NCBI GenBank assembly: GCA_002431945.1
Contig: DJET01000048.1
Span: 446 to 64,445 of the forward strand
Direction: 5' to 3'
DNA from: Ruminococcaceae bacterium UBA5891
GTDB lineage: Bacteria > Bacillota > Clostridia > Oscillospirales > Acutalibacteraceae
Length of the DNA stretch: 64,000 bases
How positions within the stretch are numbered: position 1 is the stretch's first letter; each line of letters starts with the position of its first letter. The position numbers were made by a program, and so were the translations under genes. Below, in pieces: positions 37,482 to 56,209 of the stretch. The notes below the pieces were generated by a model. The model did not search any database, had not been told where the DNA came from, and worked only from the letters and a program-made list of their open reading frames with translations.

Positions 37482-40400
37482 TCAGCTTTTGTAGGATATT
37501 TCGCCTGCTTCGCCGGTCGGAGGTATTTTAAAGCTTGCCATAGCCTGCCAATAATTGCTGTTTAATACGGTAGGAACAGCGGTGCCGGTATGGTCGGAGT
37601 TATTATACACCACCTTGTAGGCGTAAAGGAAATCATTGGTTATATCCCTGTCGTCGTCGCACAAAAAAACATCGAGCTGAATATCAGAGTTTGATTTATT
37701 CGTGACGGTAATAATATACACGCCGTTTGCATAATCGGAGCTGTAATCGGGGTCATTCGAATCCATTTTCTTAAAGGACAGATTGACCGAAAAATTGTTC
37801 TGATTTGTTCCCTGCGGCGCCGTTGTTGAGAAAAGCAAAACCGAATAATTGTTTTCCCCAAGCCTTGCCGGAGCGGTGCGGTACTCGGTTTTAAAGGCGT
37901 TGGTTACGGCATTGCCCTCAGAGCTGATAACCTTTTTTATCGCTTCACCGCCGTTTGCGGCAATGTCAAGATAAATAAGGTATGCGCCGGTTTTACCGCT
38001 TACCGAGCCGAGGCAGTATTCGCCCTTGTTGCAGGGTATTTCAAAATAATATATGTTATTACCTTTGCGGTTGAATCCGGGATTTTTTATCCATTCGGTT
38101 TTAAAGACAGATTTATAATCCGAAATATCGACATCGGCAGAATATGTGTTGTCTTTAAACTTGTATACATAAGAGACTGCTGAGCCCTTTTCCTTATGCT
38201 CATATATTTCTTCAATTTCCTTAATGTCGGTTATTTTATTGTTTTCATCTCTGAAAACCTGATGAAGTGAGAAGAATGAGTTGTTGCCTGTAAAATAATC
38301 GCCCGCAAAAAAGTTAATTGAGCCTCTTTCAATAACATTAAAGTCAATGCTGTCCATCGGCATTTCGTAATTATCGTATTCCTTGCCTAAAACAACCGCT
38401 TTTTCGGCAGTTACAAGATAATCCTTGGAAATTTTAGCGTCCATAAAGTGCAGCCCGTAAACAGAAGTGGAACCATCAAGCGTATCAAGCAGCTGTTTTG
38501 ACGCCGTTTGGTAAGCCGGAGAATTTGCGGTGTATGAATGTTTTCCGTTTCCGTCAACCGTATAAATAGTTTTGAAAGCTTCGGGATCTTCAGTATCATA
38601 AGAACCGCTTACAGAGCTTATCGAGAAGTATGAAATACGTATATCTCCGTATGCTTTCTGACCATCATCTGTGGCTGTTGAATCCTCCAAGCGTGCGCCG
38701 CTTATAATATATCCCGTGTTTTTTTGCGAAACCTTAAAAGGATCCGCAGCGTCGTACCAACCGTTTTCATTTTCGTCTGCAATTCTAAGCGGGAAGTAAG
38801 ACTGATATCCGCCGATAACATTTGTCTTTGTTTCTTTTGTAATTCTTTTTTGAGTGGTCTTTTCAAAATCAAGGCTGTAATCAACCGTAATGGGATTTGA
38901 AATATTAACATTCGGTGAAGGAACGACCTTTTCCTGCACTGCAATTTCCGGAAGATTATCCGAACGGGCTTCTGCCGCAACGTGTTCAAAAATCGGTGTA
39001 AAAGTAAGCGTAGTCCCCGTTGTGTTTAAATCCTTCCACGAATTGTTTGTTGTGATATAAAAATTAGCGTTCTGACCCCAGCCACTATTTTTATTAACGT
39101 AAAGTTTATTGCCGTTATTTAACCAGTTTTCACCTGAATTATTACTGGTATTTAATGTATAAGAATAGCTGCCATACCAATTCCTGCTTCGGCTGACGCT
39201 AAGGTATTTTGTGGTTCCGTTTATTACGGTTGAGATAGTCCCGGAATAGGTGCTTGGATTTGAAAACGTCCATTTTGCGGCATTTGCTTGATTTGTTTCA
39301 TTTATTATGTTGCCGCTCGAATCGATACTCAAATAATTGTTACCGGAAGAAATTGTATACTTGGGGAGTGAAATCTTCCAACCGCCGTCATAAACAAGAT
39401 AATAATCGGTATTGTCCGCTCTTAAACATCCGTCGGCGGTAAAGGACCAATTTGTTGCGGTGTCAGCAAAAGAGCCGTTGCTCACCCCTAAATAATACTG
39501 AGAATTGTTAAAATTATAAGTGATGTTACCGGAATCGGAGTTTGAAAAATAAAAACGGGTTGCATTATCTGCCGTGGCATTTGAAAAGCTGTTGTTGCCG
39601 TCGGCCTTAAGGTAATTTCCGTTGCCGTCGGTTATAAGCTTATATTCAAGTGTAACCGCTTCCCAACCGTTATTATAACGGATATAATAATCCCTGCCGT
39701 TATTGGTATAATAGTATGAATTGCCGTCTTTTTTCCAGTTAAACGGGGTTTCGCTTACGGTAAGTCCGGAGTTAAAGCTTATATAATACGGTACGGAATT
39801 TATAAATGTATAAAACCTTATGCCGTTTGCGTCCTCTTCGGTCTGCCAAACAAGAGCGGTGTTCTCTGCGGCATTTTTAATGCTTTTTGTATCGGCAGAA
39901 AGGTAATTGTTATTGCCGTCGGTAATCAGCTTACCGATACAGGCGGCTTTCCAGCCGTTATCGTAAACCAGCCTGTATTTAACGCTCACATTGCCGAATG
40001 TGAGGGTTCTTGTAAAATATCCGTCGCTTTCAAGCGTCCATAAAATATCTTCGTCTTTTGTCGACTCGGTCAGCGCAAGACTGCCGTTTACGGTAAGATA
40101 ACAGCTCTTATCACCGATTTCGGTGCGAAATTTATACTTATCACCCGAAACGGTCACCTGCCATTTAACCGAACTGCTTTCGGAGCGCGCGTTTGCAATC
40201 TCGGCACCGCCCGTACCGTTTGTTGCCGAAAGGAAATTACCGTTGCCGTCTGAAATATAGCAGTATTGCGTAAAGGACGATATTCCCCATTCGGCGGAGC
40301 AGTTAAGATAATAGTCGATTCCGTTCACGGTTGTATAAAGCGCGTCTTGTTCATTGCGAATCCAAACCGTGCTTGCAGACTGCGATACCGTAACGCCGGA

Positions 40401-41831
40401 CAGACCGTTACGGTTTAAATAATAGGTTTCATTATTTATATAAGTGAAAAGATAACCGCTTTCGTCAAAGCTCCATTTTGAAGCGCCGCTTTTATCGGAG
40501 CTTGTAATACCGCCCTTAACCGCTTTCAGATATACGCCGCCGTCGCTTATATAAAAAGCGTTGAGATCCTCGGTGGATATTGTGTAAGTGTTTACGGTTT
40601 TCGGCATTCTTGAGCTGTCGCCGTACATACACATATACTGACCGTTCGAATCATTTATATAATAATACTCACCTGCATACTTATTTGCGGTTGTATAATA
40701 TAGGTATTGAACGTTATCGCGCGGATTAACATTTGTAAGTCCGTCGCGGCTTACAACACGGGTGTTGTTATTTTCATCAATCACTATATTTTCAATGGAA
40801 TAATACTGCGTAGGCTTAATTGTCGGAGAATTAGTCGGGTTGTACGAATCATACAAAGCAGCTATGCTTGTTAACCTGTCATGCATTTGCTTCATATCCA
40901 CACTGCCGCCGAAGCCTGCGTTATCGCCCTTTGTGCGTTGGGTTATAATTTCCTGACCCAAGGTTGTAACAATGTTTCCGTCCTTATCCTCCACGCAGCC
41001 GAAAAAGCCGAAACCGGAATACGCTTCGTTTCCTCCGGTAACGGTGCAGTTATTAACATATACGTCGTTCACCTGCGCGCCGGTTATTATATGTCCGGCA
41101 ATATAGCCTACGTATGCGGCGTGGTCGGTGTGCTTGGTCGGGTCGTGCGTTACTGTGGTTGAAGTGTTTAAATGCTCGCCAGATATATCAACATTTGTAA
41201 GATCAATCGTCATACTGTCGATATACAGGTTTTTAATTGTGGGCGTTTGCTCGGTGTTGCCGCCTTTATTGCTTACATAACCGAATAAGCCTATATCCGG
41301 CGTTGTATAGGTTGTTCCGTTAAGGCTTGTGCTGCCTACAATTTTTAAGTTTTTAAGGGTAATGTTTTCGCCGTCAAGCGTTGCCTGAAATGGCTTTTCG
41401 GCAGAGCCTATCGGAAACAGTCCGTCCGTGTAGCTTGCAAGGTTAAGGGTTTGTGAAGTATTATTGTTTGTTACGCCGCTGTCGTCATATTCAAAAACCG
41501 AAAATTCCTTCAATTCATCTATTCCGTCAAGGTCCAAATCCTTAGTACCTATGCGGAAATGGGTAGACGCCGTAATAAAATCCGATCCCTTAACAGCCGG
41601 ATTCGCCTGATAAAGCATTACCAAATTATAAAAATGAACAGGTCTTGTAATTTCGTAAGGATTTTCCGCCGTGCCGTCGCCTTTATGAAAATAACGCGTC
41701 ACCACCGAGCCGCCGTTTTCATCTAAATCGGCGGAATTAAGCTTGGCAAACCACGCAAAGGACACCGAAACGCTTGTTAAAAGCATAACCGCCGCCGTAA
41801 ATAAAGCGATAATTCTGTTTCTTTTGCTCAT
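37482..41831 (-). CDS. Giant secreted adhesin-like protein with TasA/SipW-type N-terminal signal, beta-helix-like region and lectin-like repeats
   Basis: 1449 aa from ATG 41831; the RBS AAGGAG lies inside the end of the upstream gene. The N-terminus is a basic stretch, a hydrophobic helix, then SFAWFAK. A beta-helix/GLUG-like region follows (ENPYEITRPVHFYNL, PIGSAEKPFQATLDGENITLKNLKI, GLFGYV). About 490 aa of repeated Y-Y-L...W units come next, and the C-terminal ~540 aa is unassigned. Confidence 0.6.
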   Translation of the reverse strand: MSKRNRIIALFTAAVMLLTSVSVSFAWFAKLNSADLDENGGSVVTRYFHKGDGTAENPYEITRPVHFYNLVMLYQANPAVKGSDFITASTHFRIGTKDLDLDGIDELKEFSVFEYDDSGVTNNNTSQTLNLASYTDGLFPIGSAEKPFQATLDGENITLKNLKIVGSTSLNGTTYTTPDIGLFGYVSNKGGNTEQTPTIKNLYIDSMTIDLTNVDISGEHLNTSTTVTHDPTKHTDHAAYVGYIAGHIITGAQVNDVYVNNCTVTGGNEAYSGFGFFGCVEDKDGNIVTTLGQEIITQRTKGDNAGFGGSVDMKQMHDRLTSIAALYDSYNPTNSPTIKPTQYYSIENIVIDENNNTRVVSRDGLTNVNPRDNVQYLYYTTANKYAGEYYYINDSNGQYMCMYGDSSRMPKTVNTYTISTEDLNAFYISDGGVYLKAVKGGITSSDKSGASKWSFDESGYLFTYINNETYYLNRNGLSGVTVSQSASTVWIRNEQDALYTTVNGIDYYLNCSAEWGISSFTQYCYISDGNGNFLSATNGTGGAEIANARSESSSVKWQVTVSGDKYKFRTEIGDKSCYLTVNGSLALTESTKDEDILWTLESDGYFTRTLTFGNVSVKYRLVYDNGWKAACIGKLITDGNNNYLSADTKSIKNAAENTALVWQTEEDANGIRFYTFINSVPYYISFNSGLTVSETPFNWKKDGNSYYYTNNGRDYYIRYNNGWEAVTLEYKLITDGNGNYLKADGNNSFSNATADNATRFYFSNSDSGNITYNFNNSQYYLGVSNGSFADTATNWSFTADGCLRADNTDYYLVYDGGWKISLPKYTISSGNNYLSIDSSGNIINETNQANAAKWTFSNPSTYSGTISTVINGTTKYLSVSRSRNWYGSYSYTLNTSNNSGENWLNNGNKLYVNKNSGWGQNANFYITTNNSWKDLNTTGTTLTFTPIFEHVAAEARSDNLPEIAVQEKVVPSPNVNISNPITVDYSLDFEKTTQKRITKETKTNVIGGYQSYFPLRIADENENGWYDAADPFKVSQKNTGYIISGARLEDSTATDDGQKAYGDIRISYFSISSVSGSYDTEDPEAFKTIYTVDGNGKHSYTANSPAYQTASKQLLDTLDGSTSVYGLHFMDAKISKDYLVTAEKAVVLGKEYDNYEMPMDSIDFNVIERGSINFFAGDYFTGNNSFFSLHQVFRDENNKITDIKEIEEIYEHKEKGSAVSYVYKFKDNTYSADVDISDYKSVFKTEWIKNPGFNRKGNNIYYFEIPCNKGEYCLGSVSGKTGAYLIYLDIAANGGEAIKKVISSEGNAVTNAFKTEYRTAPARLGENNYSVLLFSTTAPQGTNQNNFSVNLSFKKMDSNDPDYSSDYANGVYIITVTNKSNSDIQLDVFLCDDDRDITNDFLYAYKVVYNNSDHTGTAVPTVLNSNYWQAMASFKIPPTGEAGEISYKS
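39100..40570 (-). repeat. Degenerate in-frame protein repeats (beta-trefoil/ricin-like lectin pattern) in the giant protein
   Basis: Recurrent ~40-50-aa units such as ISDGNGNFLSAT...VKWQV, LITDGNNNYLSAD...LVWQT, LITDGNGNYLKAD..., ISSGNNYLSID...AKWTF. These alternate with YYLN / YYIS / YYLG ... W units. Boundaries are approximate. Confidence 0.45.
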
Positions 41832-41836
41832 AGCCC

Positions 41837-42577
41837 TCACTCCTTAATTACTTCAATCGAAGAAATGTCGCCTTTGTACTGCGTGGTTTCGTTTTCACCG
41901 TCAAACGCTATATCCTTACTTTGAATTACATTCGAGTAATAATCAACCAAAATATATATTGCCCCGCCCTCGTCCATAGTAAGACTGTCTGTTTCAAAAG
42001 CGGTCCGCTTTTCGGTAATGCTTCCGTCTTGTTCGGTGATAAATAAGTAATCCGTATATTTATCATCGTTTTCAAGCTCTGTTACGGCGCTTTTATAAAT
42101 TTCCTCTTCTGTTCCCGTTAAATTAAGCGAAGCGGCGCGGAATTTTACCATATCCGAAATATAGTTAAGCTTGGCATCAGCGTCGGTGCAATTGAATTTA
42201 AGACGGAATTTATCGCCGCCGCTAAGCCCCTTTACCTCTATTTTTATTATAACCGCATTTTCTTCATTTCGGCTTGTAAACACGGTATCGTATTCATTAA
42301 GCGTTGCGTCGGTACCGGTATAAAAGCTATATTTAAACTTATCGCGGTCATATTCATTTTTATAAACGGTAAAGCCTAAAACGGAAAAATCCGAATCGTC
42401 AGCCGCGGTGATCGTCATATTGCTTGCGGTTACGGCATTACCGTTTGCAAACCAACCGAGAGAATTGTTTAAAAAAACAATAATCGCAAGGAGCAGAATC
42501 ACCGAAATTGCAATAAGAGAAGCAAACTGCATATACTGTTTTCTGGTTTGCAGAAAGCCCATTATCCTCTGTGCCAC
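41837..42577 (-). CDS. TasA/camelysin-like secreted protein (minor fibre subunit candidate)
   Basis: I place the start at GTG 42577, which sits 9 nt after RBS AAAGGAG (42593-42587) and immediately after the riboswitch terminator. N-terminal TM helix, then LGWFANGNAVTASNMTITAADD, which parallels the 251-aa protein. C-terminal AFDGENETTQYKGDISSIEVI resembles the TasA-family C-terminal strand motif. Confidence 0.6.
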   Translation of the reverse strand: MAQRIMGFLQTRKQYMQFASLIAISVILLLAIIVFLNNSLGWFANGNAVTASNMTITAADDSDFSVLGFTVYKNEYDRDKFKYSFYTGTDATLNEYDTVFTSRNEENAVIIKIEVKGLSGGDKFRLKFNCTDADAKLNYISDMVKFRAASLNLTGTEEEIYKSAVTELENDDKYTDYLFITEQDGSITEKRTAFETDSLTMDEGGAIYILVDYYSNVIQSKDIAFDGENETTQYKGDISSIEVIKE

Positions 42578-42600
42578 GGCGCCCCGCTCCTTTCCGTAAT

Positions 42601-42635
42601 ATAAAAGCCGTGCCGCATAACGAATGCGGCACGGC
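42601..42635 (-). terminator. Intrinsic terminator (expression platform of minus-strand riboswitch)
   Basis: The minus strand reads GCCGUGCCGCAU-UCGUU-AUGCGGCACGGC-UUUUAU, a 12-bp GC-rich stem plus a U-tract. Its 5' GCC overlaps the aptamer 3' end. Confidence 0.8.
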
Positions 42636-42706
42636 AACTGGCTGACTTAAACTAAAGTCCCTATAGCTTTGCGTCACCGGATTGCTCCGGCTTTGCTTTT
42701 TCTTTT
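42633..42706 (-). promoter_or_regulatory. c-di-GMP-I (GEMM-I)-like riboswitch aptamer, copy A
   Basis: The minus strand reads AAAAGCAAAG-CCGGA-GCAA-UCCGG-UGACGCAAAGCUAUAGGGAC...GUCAGCCAGUUGCC. It has a GNRA-capped hairpin, the ACGCAAAGC junction and a GGGAC/GUC helix in the GEMM-I order. Confidence 0.75.
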
Positions 42707-42716
42707 TTTCTTATAT

Positions 42717-42797: not shown

Positions 42798-42826
42798 TTG
42801 ACACGAAAAAAAACAGTGTATATAAT
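42798..42826 (+). promoter_or_regulatory. Sigma-A consensus promoter
   Basis: TTGACA (42798-42803), a 17-nt spacer, then TATAAT (42821-42826). Confidence 0.75.
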
Positions 42827-42835
42827 GTAAAAGAT

Positions 42836-42910
42836 GATTATTTTGGGTAAAATCGGAGCAATCCGATGACACAAAGCTATAGGGTCCATCAAGTGGATTG
42901 CCAGCTGCAA
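42836..42910 (+). promoter_or_regulatory. c-di-GMP-I (GEMM-I)-like riboswitch aptamer, copy B
   Basis: UUGGGUAAA-AUCGGA-GCAA-UCCGAU-GACACAAAGCUAUAGGGUCC-AUCAAGU-GGAUUGCCAGCUGCAA. The architecture matches copies A and C, and the GNRA hairpin stem differs by compensatory changes. Confidence 0.75.
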
Positions 42911-42948
42911 TTTTCAACGGGTCTAACGTTGTTTATTGCAGTTTTTTT
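42903..42948 (+). terminator. Intrinsic terminator (expression platform of copy B)
   Basis: CUGCAAU (42905-42911) pairs with AUUGCAG (42935-42941). There is an inner CAACG/CGUUG helix, followed by U7 (42942-48). The 5' arm overlaps the aptamer 3' strand. Confidence 0.8.
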
Positions 42949-42972
42949 ATATTCGGGTTTTGGGGTGATAAT

Positions 42973-43812
42973 ATGACTGATGAAAAAAATACGGTAAATG
43001 AAGAGGCGGCGGAAAACAAATCCCCTGTCGACTATGTTGATATGGCGGTTCATTCGGGCGTGGCGCCGCTTGAGACGCGTTATTGCGGAATATACGACTG
43101 CTATTCAAAATCCCCCGTTGCTTACAGAAGCTTTACCTATATAAACAGCGTGCTTGAAGGGGTTATACCGCCAGAAAAATATTGCTTCGCCGCAGACAGC
43201 ACAGATACCGGCATAAGGCTTGCAAAATATAATATTATAAATGCAATAAATATGATAAAGCGTCTTGAAGACGCCGGCAGGCATATCAGATTTGTAACGG
43301 CGCGCTGCCCTGCCCTGCTAGCCGAAAGGGACGGTTTATATGAATTTGTGCAGTCGCTTATGAAGCAGTGCGATTTTCACGAGCCCGAAAAGCTTTGTCT
43401 TGAATTTCCGCAATCCTTGCTTTACGGGGAAAAAGAAAAGGTGCGTATAGGTATTCTTAATATGAAGCTGCTTAAGGTTATGACTATGATGTCCGGCTGC
43501 GGTGCGGACGACTGCCCGATAACCCCCTTAATGGATATTCCCGTAGACAGCGTGCTTTTATCGCCCGAAATTACGGCGCTTACCGATTCGCGCGGCAGAT
43601 CGTCGCATATATCCTCTTTTATCTCATTTATAAAGGATATGGATATTAAGGTCTACGCCGACGGAGTTAATAACGACGACCAGATAACCTCGCTTTTACG
43701 GCTTGACTGTTCGGGATATGCGCCCTCCTCAGGGTATACGGGAGCAGCCGTTCACGGCAGACTGCGTATGACCGGCGAAGAAGCAATTTCCCAAAAGGAG
43801 GAAACCGACTGA
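42973..43812 (+). CDS. Degenerate EAL-domain protein (catalytically inactive; possible c-di-GMP receptor)
   Basis: 279 aa from ATG 42973, after RBS GGGGTG. The EAL-domain order is retained but key residues are replaced: YRS for EAL, LCLEFPQ for xxEITE, MSGCGADDC for DDFGTGYSS, YADGVN for AEGVE, CSGY for QGY. The stop overlaps the next start (TGATG). Confidence 0.6.
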   Translation: MTDEKNTVNEEAAENKSPVDYVDMAVHSGVAPLETRYCGIYDCYSKSPVAYRSFTYINSVLEGVIPPEKYCFAADSTDTGIRLAKYNIINAINMIKRLEDAGRHIRFVTARCPALLAERDGLYEFVQSLMKQCDFHEPEKLCLEFPQSLLYGEKEKVRIGILNMKLLKVMTMMSGCGADDCPITPLMDIPVDSVLLSPEITALTDSRGRSSHISSFISFIKDMDIKVYADGVNNDDQITSLLRLDCSGYAPSSGYTGAAVHGRLRMTGEEAISQKEETD

Positions 43813-44561
43813 TGGCAAGGCAACATATAGTTGAATCGGTTGTGGAAAGAACCGCAAACGAGGTAAAGCGTTACCGCCTTTATATGCGGATAATTCCGAT
43901 AGGCGCCGCCGTTCTTTCGCTCATACTGATAATAGGCTACGTTATTTCCGTGCTTTATATGAAGTTCGGCGCATTTACCGTAATGGTAAACAAGTTCGAT
44001 AACCTTGATTACGCGCTTACCCTCTCCCCAAGCTCGGATTTCAACACCAAAACCTCGCGCCTTAATGCAGAGATCGATAAGGAAATAACCAATATAGACG
44101 GAAAAACCCTGCCCAACTATCTTGATAACGTAGACGGCGAGCACAACGGCGAAAATTATGTTGCATATACCTTTTACTGCCGTAACGAGGGCAAGCACAG
44201 AATAACTTATACCTACGATCTGTACATCGCCAATATGACCTATGAAATTGAAAAGGCGGTCAGGGTAAGGCTTTATGTAGACGGCGAGGCTACCGACTAC
44301 GCCTATGCCAGAACAGACGGCGTTAAGGGGCCCGAACCCGGAACAACGCAGTTTCAAACCGGCAATACGATAGTAAAAAAGGAAATAGCTCATTTCAAGC
44401 CCGGCGACGTTACCAAATATACGGTTGTAATTTGGCTTGAGGGCAACGACCCCGACTGCGTGGATAAAATTATAGGCGGAAAATTCAAGGTTGATATGGC
44501 GCTTACCGTTATAAAGGACGAGGAAGAAAAGGAACAGGCCAAGGCAAAAGAGCTTATTTAA
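43812..44561 (+). CDS. TasA-like membrane-anchored/secreted protein
   Basis: 249-aa ORF. It has a basic N-terminus, a TM helix, then KFGAFTVMVNKFDN. C-terminal YTVVIWLEGNDPDCVDKIIGGKFKVDMALTVI parallels the FDGEN...-type motif of the other two small proteins. Confidence 0.5.
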   Translation: MARQHIVESVVERTANEVKRYRLYMRIIPIGAAVLSLILIIGYVISVLYMKFGAFTVMVNKFDNLDYALTLSPSSDFNTKTSRLNAEIDKEITNIDGKTLPNYLDNVDGEHNGENYVAYTFYCRNEGKHRITYTYDLYIANMTYEIEKAVRVRLYVDGEATDYAYARTDGVKGPEPGTTQFQTGNTIVKKEIAHFKPGDVTKYTVVIWLEGNDPDCVDKIIGGKFKVDMALTVIKDEEEKEQAKAKELI

Positions 44562-44590: not shown

Positions 44591-44619
44591 TTGACAAGTG
44601 AAAAAGCAATTTGTATAAT
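44591..44619 (+). promoter_or_regulatory. Sigma-A consensus promoter
   Basis: TTGACA (44591-44596), a 17-nt spacer, then TATAAT (44614-44619). Confidence 0.75.
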
Positions 44620-44631
44620 AAATTAGCAAAA

Positions 44632-44704
44632 TAAGTTTGGTAAAACCGTTGTAAAGCGGCGACACAAAGCTATAGGGTCCATAAAATGGATTGCCAGCTG
44701 CAAC
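44632..44704 (+). promoter_or_regulatory. c-di-GMP-I (GEMM-I)-like riboswitch aptamer, copy C
   Basis: UUUGGUAAAA-CCGUU-GUAA-AGCGG-CGACACAAAGCUAUAGGGUCC-AUAAAAU-GGAUUGCCAGCUGCAAC. The 3' half is almost identical to copy B. The GNRA hairpin is entirely different but still base-paired. Confidence 0.75.
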
Positions 44705-44741
44705 CGATAACAGTTCTTCTGTTATTTGTTGCAGCTTTTTT
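44696..44741 (+). terminator. Intrinsic terminator (expression platform of copy C)
   Basis: AGCUGCAAC (44696-44704) pairs with GUUGCAGCU (44728-44736). There is an inner GAUAACAG/CUGUUAU helix, then UUUUUUGUUU. The 5' arm uses the aptamer AGCU and CAA nucleotides. Confidence 0.8.
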
Positions 44742-44818: not shown

Positions 44819-45574
44819 ATGAAAAAAATGAAAAAACTCTTTCCTGCCCTTTGCCTGCTGCTGGTTTCGGCAACACTTCTGGGCACCTCCACCTACGCTT
44901 GGTTCTCGATGAACAAGAACGTGCATGCAAACAATATGCAAATCACCGCAAAAGCAGACACAACTTATCTGTTGATTAGTGCCGATAAAAACACTGCCGC
45001 AGGAATTCAAGAAGATAAAAAGATTGAAGTAAGTTTAGGTGAAAATAAAAATCTTTACCCTGCTGCACTTAAAACCAACACCAATCCGTTCACGGACGCA
45101 GACGACAACTGGTGGTATGCTTCGGCAAGCACAAGCGACAAATCTACAAAGGACGATGAAACAGTAGTAACCTTTGGCGAGGCAAAATCTAAAAAGCCTA
45201 CCGATGCAGAAGCTAAAGAAGACGCCACAACATTCACTGAGCGCGTACTTAAAAAGACCGTTTATCTAACTCTTGCAAAAGGCTCTGTAAATAAAGGCAA
45301 GTTAACGGTTAAGGCTACTGATTTTACAGACAGTATTGGTTCCGCCAATGCTACAAAGCTTGTGGTTGCAACTGCGACTAAGGCTCTCTACTTTGACGGA
45401 AATAATGCCGCAACTGCACAGGAACTCGTAGCCGACGGCGGAATGAGCGATAGTGAAGTTATCACTGTTAATATATATATGTATTTCGACGGTGAAAACG
45501 CTGATGTTTACACCGATAACATCACAGCACTCACTAGTGCATCAGCAAACATTCACTTTGCAATTGCAGACTGA
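44819..45574 (+). CDS. TasA/camelysin-like secreted protein (major fibre subunit candidate)
   Basis: 251-aa ORF after RBS AAGGGG. The signal LLLVSATLLGTSTYAWFSMNKN resembles B. subtilis TasA GGGTWAAFND. C-terminal VNIYMYFDGENADVYTDN...ANIHFAIAD resembles the TasA-family terminal strands. It appears to be a monocistronic unit between a riboswitch and a hairpin. Confidence 0.65.
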   Translation: MKKMKKLFPALCLLLVSATLLGTSTYAWFSMNKNVHANNMQITAKADTTYLLISADKNTAAGIQEDKKIEVSLGENKNLYPAALKTNTNPFTDADDNWWYASASTSDKSTKDDETVVTFGEAKSKKPTDAEAKEDATTFTERVLKKTVYLTLAKGSVNKGKLTVKATDFTDSIGSANATKLVVATATKALYFDGNNAATAQELVADGGMSDSEVITVNIYMYFDGENADVYTDNITALTSASANIHFAIAD

Positions 45575-45850: not shown

Positions 45851-46567
45851 ATGGCAGGAAAAAAAAGTGCTGAAAAGGCAATTAAAATTGTTGTAAATAC
45901 TTTGGTTTGGCTTTTCGTTGTTTTTGCAATCGTTATAACGGTTTTGGCTTTCGCCGCCCAGTCCGATCCGGACGGGGTTCCGGCTATCGGTGGCAAGTGC
46001 ATTTTAACCGTTCAGTCCGATTCAATGAAGGGCGTTTTTAACAAGGGCGATATTATCATTGCAGAAAAGCTTAGCGATAAAGAAAAAAGCGAGCTTGCGG
46101 TAAAGGATATTATCAGCTTTAAAACCGACCTTAACGGCGACGGCGTAAAGGAAATAAACTCCCACCGCATTACCGAGGTTATAAAAGGCGAAAACGGCGA
46201 AATTTCTTATAAAACAATGGGTGATAACACACTCGGCGAGGATACCGGAGAGGTTGCCGCCGCCGATGTTATAGGCAAATACAACGGCACGCGCATTAAG
46301 GGACTCGGCGGCTTTCTTGATTTTCTTCAGAAGCCTAAGGGCTTTTTGGTAGTTGTTGTTATTCCGTTAATTCTTTTCTTTGTGTTTGAGCTTGCAAACT
46401 TTATTAAAACGTTTATTCAGGTTAAAAACGGCGATAAAAAGCAGATTACCGCCGAGGACGAGGCGCTCATTCGCAAACAGGCTGTTGAAGAATATCTGCG
46501 CCAGCAAAAGGCGGCGGCAGACAGTAACGGGGAAAATTCCTCTGACGCTACCGACATTGATAAATAG
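45851..46567 (+). CDS. sipW: Signal peptidase I, archaeal/ER-type (SipW-like), paralog 1
   Basis: 238-aa ORF. N-terminal TM, catalytic-Ser segment VQSDSMKG, His segment INSHRITEV, MGDNTLGED box, a C-terminal TM and an acidic/basic tail. Confidence 0.8.
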   Translation: MAGKKSAEKAIKIVVNTLVWLFVVFAIVITVLAFAAQSDPDGVPAIGGKCILTVQSDSMKGVFNKGDIIIAEKLSDKEKSELAVKDIISFKTDLNGDGVKEINSHRITEVIKGENGEISYKTMGDNTLGEDTGEVAAADVIGKYNGTRIKGLGGFLDFLQKPKGFLVVVVIPLILFFVFELANFIKTFIQVKNGDKKQITAEDEALIRKQAVEEYLRQQKAAADSNGENSSDATDIDK

Positions 46568-54526: not shown

Positions 54527-56209
54527 ATGGATGTGCATACCGTCCGCCGGCAAATGCGGACTAAGAGCATTTACGATATACCGCTCAGAGTCACTTTTTA
54601 CGCACGCGTATCCTCCGAAAAGGACGAGCAGCTAAACTCGCTTGACAACCAAATATCCTATTACCGCAATTTCATAAAGAAAAATGCTAACTGGGAGTTT
54701 GTTGACGGGTATATAGACGAAGGTCTTTCGGGAATGAGCACCAAAAAGCGCGAGAATTTTCACAATATGGTGAACGACGCCAAAGCCGGACTCTTCGACC
54801 TTGTTATCACAAAGGAGATCACCCGTTTTGCCCGTAACACGCTTGACAGTATTCAGTACACCCGTGAGCTTTTAAGCTGCGGTGTGGGCGTGTTTTTTCA
54901 AAACGATAATATAAACACGCTCGATGAGGACAGCGAGCTGCGCTTAACCATTATGTCGGGCATAGCGCAGGACGAGCTGCGCAAGCTTTCAAGCCGTATT
55001 AAATTCGGGCATCAGGAAGCAATAAAGAAAAGCGTTGTTTTAGGCAACAGCCGCATATTCGGCTACCGCAAGGATAACAAAAGGCTTGTTATCGATGAAA
55101 AAGAGGCGGAAATGGTAAGAGAATTATTTACCCTTTACGCTACCGATAAATACAGTATGAAGCAGCTTGAGGATATTTTTTGGAGCAAGGGCTACCGCAA
55201 CAATAACGGCAAAAAAATTTGTCACAGCACAATGTCAAACACCATTTCAAACCCTAAATACAAGGGCTATTATGTCGGCAATAAGGTAAAAATCGTTGAT
55301 ATGTTTACTAAAAAGCAAAAGTTCCTGCCGCCGGAGGAATGGGTAATGTTTAAGGACGAAACGGGAGAGATCGTTCCGGCAATTGTAAGCGAAGAGCTGT
55401 GGGAGCAGGCAAACGCCGTTTTGAAAAGGCGCAGCCGTGATGTTAAAAACAGGCAAAATCAGTGCAACCACGCAAATTTATTAACAGGCAAAATGTACTG
55501 CACCCACTGTGGAAGGCTTTATTACCGTAAGGACAGCAAGGACAGAAAGGGAAACATGCTGTCACGCTGGATATGTTCGGGAAAGATTGCAAACGGCGCG
55601 GCCTCCTGCCCTTCGTTTACAATTTACGAGGAAGAGATCAAAGAGGTTTTGTACGAGGTGTTTAAGGACACCGCCGAGGACTCAAAGCGAATAATTGAGG
55701 AATATACAAGCCTATACGCCGAAATGACCGAAAAGGACGCCTCTGCCGCCGACTTTAAAAGGCTGAAAGACAGACTTGATTTGTTATCAAGAAAAAAGTC
55801 AAAGCTGCTTGAATATAATATTGCGGGGCAGATAAGCGACAGGGATTTTATTGAAATGAACAGGCAAATTACCAAAGAGTCCTCCGAGGTTTACTCCGCA
55901 ATTGAAGAAACGGAAAACGAAATAAACTCGCAAGCGGGATTTAAAGAAAAAATTGAAGAAATTAAAACCGTTCTTCAAAAAGCGGAAAAAGACGCGTCAA
56001 AGGAAATGATAGACTCTGCCTTTGTAAACAAGTATATAGATAAGATATATGTAACCCCCGTTGACGACGGCGTTATTGATATTTCGGTAAAGCTTTTCAC
56101 AGGCGATACGTTCGCTAAGGTCTTTGAAAAGTCGGAACATCGACTTGCAGGTCGTACGGGACATACGTTTAAAAAGATGATCGAGTCTTACGAAAACAGC
56201 ATGAAATAA
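54527..56209 (+). CDS. Large serine recombinase (resolvase/invertase N-domain + recombinase + zinc-ribbon + coiled coil)
   Basis: Start at ATG 54527, 7 nt after AAGGAGA. Catalytic region YARVSSEKDEQLNSLDNQ, TKEITRFARN, a Cys cluster (CTHCGRLYY...WICSG...CPS) and a long C-terminal coiled-coil. Confidence 0.85.
   Translation: MDVHTVRRQMRTKSIYDIPLRVTFYARVSSEKDEQLNSLDNQISYYRNFIKKNANWEFVDGYIDEGLSGMSTKKRENFHNMVNDAKAGLFDLVITKEITRFARNTLDSIQYTRELLSCGVGVFFQNDNINTLDEDSELRLTIMSGIAQDELRKLSSRIKFGHQEAIKKSVVLGNSRIFGYRKDNKRLVIDEKEAEMVRELFTLYATDKYSMKQLEDIFWSKGYRNNNGKKICHSTMSNTISNPKYKGYYVGNKVKIVDMFTKKQKFLPPEEWVMFKDETGEIVPAIVSEELWEQANAVLKRRSRDVKNRQNQCNHANLLTGKMYCTHCGRLYYRKDSKDRKGNMLSRWICSGKIANGAASCPSFTIYEEEIKEVLYEVFKDTAEDSKRIIEEYTSLYAEMTEKDASAADFKRLKDRLDLLSRKKSKLLEYNIAGQISDRDFIEMNRQITKESSEVYSAIEETENEINSQAGFKEKIEEIKTVLQKAEKDASKEMIDSAFVNKYIDKIYVTPVDDGVIDISVKLFTGDTFAKVFEKSEHRLAGRTGHTFKKMIESYENSMK

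Follow-up and report, generated by a model that had tools for sequence, protein, structure and literature searches.

What does a protein with the fold of a cyclic di-GMP (c-di-GMP) phosphodiesterase do, once its catalytic residues are gone, directly in front of a membrane-anchored protein in a fibre locus? The question is raised by a stretch of 64,000 nucleotides (nt) from Ruminococcaceae bacterium UBA5891 (positions 446 to 64,445 of contig DJET01000048.1, assembly GCA_002431945.1), here called the window, in which an open reading frame starting from an ATG (42973..43812, forward strand) encodes a degenerate EAL-fold protein of 279 amino acids (aa), the pseudo-EAL, and shares one base with the open reading frame of a 249-aa protein, p249 (43812..44561, forward strand). 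Our reading, to which we assign a probability of roughly 0.55, is that this dead EAL is the dedicated cytoplasmic partner of p249 in a SipW-dependent, TasA-like, CoCoPALM-type fibre and that it senses c-di-GMP.

The 279-aa protein and its family

The initial annotation had recognized an EAL-domain protein in the order and spacing of short motifs, and this identification was borne out by both sequence and structure comparisons. The 279-aa protein matched the Pfam EAL profile PF00563 with an E-value (E) of 1.3e-17 (64.5 bits against a cut-off of 31.3) across profile positions 13-226 of 236, and an AlphaFold (AF2) model built from 36 homologs, with a predicted local distance difference test score (pLDDT) of 87.3 and a predicted template modelling score (pTM) of 0.83, retrieved nothing except EAL domains among its top 50 Foldseek matches, at template modelling (TM) scores of 0.65-0.85. 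These structural neighbours included the EAL domains of MucR, MorA, Bd1971, TBD1265 and FimX, with TM scores of 0.72-0.80 for those of MucR, MorA, TBD1265 and FimX, and the best sequence matches among solved structures were active phosphodiesterases such as DcpA, RocR and MucR. The protein itself stands alone and is cytoplasmic, with neither a signal peptide nor a transmembrane segment.

Comparison of its residues with RocR, with the intact EAL domain of a 771-aa protein encoded in the same window, and with the hidden Markov model (HMM) of its own family revealed how much of the active site has been replaced. The Glu of the EAL motif is Arg (the motif reads YRS), the Arg of ExLxR is Tyr, the metal-binding Asn is Ala, and DD is SG (DDFGTGYSS reads SGCGADDCP), while the Lys of KxD is Leu (KLD reads LLS), the general-base Glu of EGVE is Asp (DGVN) and the Gln of QGY is Ser (SGY). 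The ExxE motif keeps its first Glu, E144, and has Gln for its second, so that a single one of about ten canonical residues is unchanged and 8-9 of 10 are counted as lost. Among the metal ligands of class I EAL domains (the EAL Glu, the Asn, the ExxE Glu residues and DD), only that first ExxE Glu is left, and both the catalytic Lys and the general-base Glu of an active c-di-GMP phosphodiesterase are gone. The degenerate motifs listed initially were thus correct against all three references, and the accompanying statement that essentially all catalytic or metal residues had been lost holds for most of them and overstates the case slightly, since E144 is a metal ligand and the change from Glu to Asp is conservative. 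An active phosphodiesterase is ruled out by the residue comparison with the intact EAL domain of the 771-aa protein, and we regard the 279-aa protein as almost certainly a non-catalytic EAL fold.

A word-indexed search recovered 156 relatives, mostly from uncultured rumen and gut Clostridia, and the 36 homologs at 47-74% identity conserve the replacement motifs themselves (AYRSFTYINS, FVTARCP, CLEFPQ/R, GCGxxDCP, PVDyvLL and ADGVxND). An exhaustive profile search against 1.84 billion cluster representatives (50%-identity clusters) revealed 86 clusters at E<=1e-30 and 1144 at E<=1e-10, with the top representatives being nearly all stand-alone proteins of 240-300 aa. Each of the 131 full-length top representatives keeps at most 3 of the 10 canonical residues: the EAL-Glu position is Arg in 93, the second Asp of DD is Gly in 83, and the catalytic Lys is hydrophobic throughout, with the first ExxE Glu retained in 105. 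Among the 36 close homologs the EAL-Glu position is Arg in 34 and Lys or His in the other two; the ExLxR position is Arg in none of them and returns to Arg in a minority of distant members. Recent pseudogenisation is rejected because the replacement motifs are conserved over the 36 homologs and the 131 cluster representatives, and the degeneracy, judged from these alignments, is an old and selected character of the family rather than decay. In L030 (3120-4043, genome G063) the EAL-like gene 5' of p249 is split by an in-frame TAA into parts of 153 and 134 aa, possibly a pseudogene or an assembly error, with p249 intact; and in L029 (2259-4223, genome G068) a less degenerate EAL (Pfam E 2e-47, with NDFG and the EAL Glu kept) precedes p249.

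Several of the new residues are invariant or nearly so on the former active-site strands, and one could therefore picture an enzyme with a changed chemistry or substrate whose site is formed by C142, E144, C176, D180, R52 and R111. We consider this extremely improbable, as the general base, the catalytic Lys and both DD metal ligands are lost, the new positions vary in distant family members, and a non-enzymatic PilZ protein can fill the same genomic position, as described below.

Pairing with p249 and other occupants of the same position

The tie between the two genes is visible at their junction, where the one-base TGATG overlap noted in the initial annotation (43810..43814, forward strand) is made up of the stop codon TGA at 43810-43812 and the start codon ATG at 43812-43814. 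The Shine-Dalgarno sequence of the p249 gene, AGGAGG at 43796..43801 (forward strand), lies 10 nt 5' of that ATG and is embedded in the part of the upstream gene that encodes the conserved acidic C-terminus (..QKEEE..) of the pseudo-EAL. Of 25 loci, 21 share a 1-nt T[GA]ATG overlap, three have the two genes 0-3 nt apart and one has them 137 nt apart, and most of the 25 also carry GAGGAGG at the same position inside the end of the EAL-like coding sequence. A conserved stop/start overlap with the ribosome-binding site in the upstream gene is what marks a translationally coupled pair, and since p249 starts on the last base of the EAL-like stop codon with its Shine-Dalgarno sequence inside the EAL-like gene, both proteins are made together.

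The pairing extends across the relatives: a p249 homolog lies directly 3' of the EAL-like gene in all 24 loci that reach that far, and p249 adjoins each of the 10 EAL-like matches made among 201 sampled genomes of the order. Gene order in these relatives runs from the EAL-like gene to p249 and then to a secreted subunit of the type encoded by the 251-aa gene of the window, after which there follows either a SipW, McrB-like, McrC-like, SipW and GGDEF/EAL series or a protein of the window's 266-aa type with a giant adhesin. The cassette can also be present in several copies, as in the rumen metagenome-assembled genome RGIG8257, which holds three separate EAL-like/p249 loci (L009, L013 and L016) on different contigs.

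To guard against circularity, we also took p249 as the sole starting point and read the gene directly upstream in the 24 genomes, from the samples of the order and the class, that carry it. This was a stand-alone degenerate EAL in 17 of the 24 (one of them broken by a stop), a fusion of HD_5 (HD-GYP-like) with a partly degenerate EAL in 3, a PilZ protein in 2, and none of these in the remaining 2. The PilZ protein of locus L028 is a 215-aa, YcgR-like PilZNR+PilZ protein (PF07238, E 8e-16) encoded 3 nt from p249. It has 15 homologs in a large protein collection, and the four genomic contexts that were read (51-67% identity) all present PilZ, p249 (profile E 1e-56 to 1e-61), two subunits and SipW in that order, with a TGATG or TAATG overlap in two of them (L043 and L045) and with the RxxxR and DxSxxG motifs intact in all four. 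In L040, from a different order, the PilZ partner is homologous to that of L028 (25% identity, E 3e-16), and a search of one genome per genus in both families concerned found no further PilZ-p249 pairs beyond the index genomes.

Judged from these gene orders, then, a PilZ protein, which is a non-enzymatic c-di-GMP receptor, can stand exactly where the pseudo-EAL otherwise stands. No stronger argument is at hand for assigning the position upstream of p249 to a c-di-GMP-responsive regulator of p249 and not to an enzyme, and the PilZ and HD-GYP-like/EAL occupants together lend independent support to the view that whatever sits there is probably a c-di-GMP-responsive protein. We hold it very likely that the pseudo-EAL is a functional, non-catalytic partner of p249, and this partnership is the best-supported outcome of the analysis.

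The same neighbourhoods bear on the idea that the pseudo-EAL regulates the local cyclase or the intact GGDEF-EAL phosphodiesterase and is coupled to p249 only for co-expression. A homolog of the window's 448-aa diguanylate cyclase divergently adjoins the EAL-like gene in about 16 of the 25 loci, in many of them the last gene of the operon encodes an intact GGDEF-EAL protein, and dimerisation is common among EAL domains. The invariant neighbour is nevertheless p249 and not the cyclase, with six loci (L002, L003, L004, L006, L010 and L020) keeping the EAL-p249 pair with no cyclase homolog adjoining the EAL-like gene, and the PilZ proteins that take the position are effectors rather than enzyme subunits, which makes such a role highly unlikely in our judgement.

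If p249 is the partner, its own architecture suggests where contact might be made. Its 849 relatives, at 59-90% identity, are more conserved than the EAL-like protein. The first ~26 residues are basic and carry the invariant motif RRTAxEVKRYR, with R13, A15, E17, K19 and R22 invariant in the alignment of the cytoplasmic juxtamembrane stretch, and a single transmembrane helix follows; an invariant motif in this place suggests a cytoplasmic binding partner. Whether the motif co-varies with the type of partner was considered and rejected, since its [RK][RK]T[AS] core is found whether the partner is EAL, HD-EAL or PilZ, and also where there is none. Contact between the pseudo-EAL and this tail is accordingly a proposal that we put forward tentatively.

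Beyond the membrane, p249 continues with an invariant G-A-F-T-V, which resembles the TYA-WF SipW-type site of the neighbouring subunits and may be a cleavage site, and then with a beta-sandwich ectodomain that ends in WLEGNDPDC. The AF2 model (pLDDT 73) shows one long helix (residues 15-51) followed by the beta-sandwich. The initial description of p249 as a TasA-like membrane protein stands as far as the membrane protein is concerned and is weak as to TasA: Foldseek returned weak, generic beta-sandwich matches, among which the TasA fibre 8aur_A came seventh (E 1.4e-3, TM score 0.31-0.33), behind other beta-sandwiches, no Pfam or NCBIfam family matched at E<=1 (Peptidase_M73 included), and a profile search of PDB sequences gave nothing relevant and no TasA match. 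Alignment of p249 with the 251-aa subunit family by hhalign was weak (probability 53%, E 1.4e-4), with a shared C-terminal EG(N/E)D motif, and that subunit family in turn has no sequence-level link to solved TasA. For p249, then, 'TasA-like' is a weakly supported analogy, and we infer a role as base, anchor or initiator subunit of the fibre, much like that of TapA. One p249 homolog, in L029, is enlarged to 654 aa by ~400 residues of (D/N)VTR(Y/F)-type tandem repeats between the transmembrane helix and the beta-sandwich.

Riboswitch control and the case for c-di-GMP sensing

The EAL-like gene and the p249 gene form their own transcription unit, composed of a promoter, a c-di-GMP-I riboswitch and the two cistrons. 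The sigma-A-type promoter (42798..42826, forward strand) matches the consensus at 12 of 12 positions (TTGACA-17-TATAAT) and is followed by a c-di-GMP-I aptamer in the leader of the EAL-like gene (copy B of three in the locus; 42836..42912, forward strand; Rfam RF01051), whose score of 50.3 bits in an Rfam scan, against a gathering score of 35 (E 7e-7), upholds the initial view that the pair stands behind a genuine riboswitch. An intrinsic terminator hairpin with a U7 tract follows (42903..42950, forward strand; fold -18.2 kcal/mol, z -3.6), and its 5' arm AGCUGCAAU (from 42903) overlaps the 3' end of the aptamer. From this fold overlap, copy B is expected to be an ON switch in which ligand binding prevents termination. 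The ATG at 42973 is the credible start of the EAL-like gene, because the alternative upstream TTG at 42898 falls within the aptamer and GGGGTGA precedes the ATG.

Of 34 stand-alone EAL-like genes, 23 have an aptamer directly on their 5' side, namely that of the window and those of 22 among 33 scanned relatives, distant ones included; the other 11 have none within 1.2 kb upstream. A riboswitch as a universal companion of the EAL-like gene is rejected, since none was found within 1.2 kb upstream in 9 of the 25 close loci (Rfam gathering scan, nhmmer --max), nor in L029 and L033. Aptamers were likewise found in 0 of 6 PilZ-linked and 0 of 3 HD-EAL-linked loci. At the other extreme, locus L031 (4579-5104, reverse strand, genome G122) has four tandem c-di-GMP-I aptamers (57.7, 63, 36.4 and 63 bits) before one degenerate-EAL/p249 pair, and tandem aptamer pairs occur in L001, L003, L016 and L022.

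In the mechanism that we propose, c-di-GMP would first open the riboswitch by antitermination, upon which the EAL-like protein and p249 would be made together. The pseudo-EAL would then act on p249 at the protein level, most likely as a metal-free c-di-GMP sensor, and would license p249 export, SipW processing or the start of polymerisation. Riboswitch, pseudo-EAL and the locus's own cyclase and phosphodiesterase would thereby constitute a coherent feed-forward loop.

The step in this scheme that invites most debate is whether the pseudo-EAL itself sees the nucleotide, and we place c-di-GMP as its ligand at even odds. Speaking for sensing are an Arg that is nearly fixed at the EAL-Glu position, comparable to the KVL of the receptor LapD, the c-di-GMP-domain proteins (PilZ, HD-EAL) that make up every alternative occupant of the position, and the EAL-like loci that have no riboswitch. 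Several observations weigh in the other direction. Tyr stands here in place of the ExLxR Arg, a residue at the heart of the c-di-GMP site in LapD that the close family lacks altogether; most ligand and metal contacts are missing from the window's 279-aa protein, as is the Gln of the QP motif. In YdiV, 8 of 10 catalytic residues are gone and the protein, whose partner is FlhD, fails to bind c-di-GMP (PMC3510510); the 279-aa protein has lost 8-9. Conservation on the barrel is 0.75 on the active-site face against 0.76 on the opposite face, in a crude test made without model coordinates. The p249 loci L027 and L039 have no c-di-GMP-domain gene upstream, the [RK][RK]T[AS] tail motif of p249, found whatever the partner, does not single out the EAL-like protein, and the restriction of riboswitches to loci with stand-alone EAL-like genes fits a history in which sensing moved to the RNA and the protein was left as a ligand-blind adaptor.

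Such an adaptor or chaperone, comparable to YdiV, would bind no nucleotide, with all c-di-GMP input arriving through the riboswitches, and would hold, target or stabilise the p249 pre-protein or link p249 to SipW or to the McrB-like machine. The extent of residue loss (ExLxR Arg included) and the precedent of a similarly degenerate YdiV agree with it, as does translational coupling, which fits a stoichiometric chaperone; so does the mutual exclusion of riboswitch and PilZ partner in our sample, which suggests that one c-di-GMP sensor per locus suffices. It sits poorly, however, with the 11 aptamer-free loci, where the EAL-like protein would be the unit's only c-di-GMP-related element, with the PilZ and HD-GYP-like/EAL nature of the alternative occupants, and with the basic residue nearly fixed at the EAL-Glu position as in LapD. 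We consider a purely ligand-blind role unlikely on this evidence, and keep to the reading of a c-di-GMP-sensing partner of p249.

Carried further, that reading suggests that pseudo-EAL and PilZ proteins could be interchangeable gates, operated by c-di-GMP, that act on a membrane-anchored initiator from the cytoplasm and decide whether SipW-dependent, TasA-like fibres are processed and polymerised, an extension that we offer at clearly less than even odds. If true, it would describe a Gram-positive 'inside-out' checkpoint that forms a feed-forward loop on top of the riboswitch, and c-di-GMP would for the first time be connected with SipW/TasA-type fibres and CoCoPALM systems through a protein effector.

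The surrounding fibre locus and known systems

The pair is flanked by further units under the same type of riboswitch. On the reverse strand, aptamer copy A (42630..42707, Rfam 60.2 bits) belongs to a divergent unit whose open reading frames encode a 266-aa protein and a 1452-aa giant adhesin-like protein (42637..37482, reverse strand). Downstream on the forward strand, copy C (44629..44705, Rfam 49.5 bits), with a promoter at 44591-44619 and a terminator that overlaps the aptamer, leads the next unit. Its 251-aa secreted subunit-like protein (44819..45574) carries a SipW-type signal (..GTSTYAWFSMNKN..), and subunits of this type always lie 3' of p249 in the relatives. Two SipW-type signal peptidase paralogs, one at 45851..46567 (NCBIfam SipW NF046067, E 1.2e-26; TIGR02228, E 9e-18) and an open reading frame with homologs in related loci at 49656..50294, enclose a CoCoPALM-type module at 46651..49669 of a membrane McrB-like NTPase (528 aa; NCBIfam McrB, E 3e-5) and its DUF2357 McrC-like partner (432 aa; Pfam DUF2357, E 1e-9), all on the forward strand.

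The locus also encodes proteins for making and degrading c-di-GMP. The 771-aa membrane GGDEF(weak)-EAL protein (50630..52945, forward strand; Pfam EAL 191 bits) keeps every canonical EAL catalytic residue (SEALVRW, VNVS, LEFTES, DDFGTGYSS, KLD, QEGV, QGY) and is, by its motifs, likely an active phosphodiesterase, and a 448-aa membrane diguanylate cyclase with GGDEF intact follows (53006..54352, forward strand; PF00990, 119 bits). In the 2.38-Mb genome, which is 86% complete, we counted three c-di-GMP-I riboswitches, all in this locus, along with five GGDEF genes, two EAL genes (both in this locus) and two HD_5 genes, and no PilZ domain was found in this 86%-complete assembly. The detectable c-di-GMP output of the organism thus seems devoted to this fibre system.

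Mobile and accessory elements were seen around several of these loci. A gene for a 562-aa large serine recombinase (window 54521-56209, forward strand) is the next one after the diguanylate cyclase with which the fibre locus ends, MobA/ParB/recombinase genes lie just 5' of the fibre locus in L005, and mobile elements may carry the fibre cassette. Group II intron domains (RF02001, 151 bits; RF01998, 48 bits) lie between the subunit gene and the next riboswitch unit in L003 (12878-13182), and small open reading frames with DUF559 (a Vsr-like endonuclease domain) stand between fibre-locus genes in L004 (13008-13364) and L005 (13873-14109). Gut-1 RNA (RF01706, 55-76 bits) was found beside a tRNA a few kb 5' of the fibre locus in L008 (585-774), L009 (108-297) and L012 (3913-4103).

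Little is known of the proteins through which c-di-GMP acts in Clostridia, its best-studied outputs there being riboswitches. In general, degenerate EAL domains that are receptors (LapD, FimX) are already known, as is the ligand-blind, EAL-like type of adaptor (YdiV). Our literature search found no publication in which SipW/TasA-type fibres are linked to a PilZ protein or a degenerate EAL, and no description of the pseudo-EAL family, its coupling to p249 or its displacement by PilZ. What emerges from the present analysis is a large, old family of stand-alone pseudo-EAL proteins whose genomic partner is fixed and whose place PilZ can naturally take. It provides a concrete candidate, open to testing, for control of a Gram-positive surface fibre by c-di-GMP after translation, and a handle on uncharacterised CoCoPALM-type fibre loci, which are common in rumen and gut bacteria.

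On the fibre side, the nearest comparison is the tapA-sipW-tasA operon of Bacillus subtilis, with which this locus shares a SipW-type peptidase, secreted beta-sandwich subunits and an aromatic residue after the cleavage site. By comparison with TapA, the anchor and initiator of that system, p249 is a candidate minor base subunit, and unlike the neighbouring 251-aa subunit it has a long conserved cytoplasmic tail. The Bacillus operon differs in that riboswitch, McrBC-like module and any EAL or PilZ partner are all absent from it. CoCoPALM systems share with the window a membrane McrB-like GTPase and a DUF2357 partner accompanied by signal peptidases; their published description names the association in one paragraph, in which EAL, PilZ, c-di-GMP and riboswitches are not mentioned (PMC11090510). 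The triad of EAL, p249 and subunit nevertheless occurs with no McrBC module within ~10 kb downstream in L003 and L004, and also, over the shorter downstream stretch seen, in L010 and L020.

Among regulators, the PilZ proteins of YcgR/MotI type (PilZN+PilZ) are positional analogs of the pseudo-EAL, taking the same place 5' of p249 in six loci, sometimes with a 1-nt overlap, yet they are of unrelated fold and their known members act on flagellar motors rather than on SipW-type fibres. YdiV/STM1344 resembles the 279-aa protein in standing alone, in having lost most of its catalytic residues and in working through a protein partner. That partner is FlhD, in Enterobacteria, whereas there is no FlhDC here and the partner is a fibre protein; no YdiV chain appeared among PDB sequence matches at E<=0.001 for the protein or its profile. 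FimX offers a degenerate EAL that senses c-di-GMP for the assembly of a surface filament (Foldseek E ~1e-12, TM score ~0.7), but it is a multidomain protein of 11-14% identity that acts through PilZ and PilB on the type IV pilus, while the locus here is SipW-dependent. LapD, finally, is a degenerate EAL c-di-GMP receptor with KVL in place of EAL and with R450 at the centre of the dinucleotide site (PMC3032553). The two proteins are alike in a non-catalytic EAL fold, a basic residue for the EAL Glu and a surface-adhesion output, although LapD was not among the PDB sequence matches of the 279-aa protein or its profile. LapD has a transmembrane-HAMP-GGDEF-EAL architecture, sequesters the protease LapG and keeps the Arg after the EAL motif, whereas the 279-aa protein is soluble, stands alone without that Arg and is coupled to a separate membrane protein. 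Of the features of a LapD/FimX-type receptor, it has the basic residue at the EAL Glu and lacks the Arg, and the family offers a natural comparison for learning which residues a metal-free EAL receptor needs.

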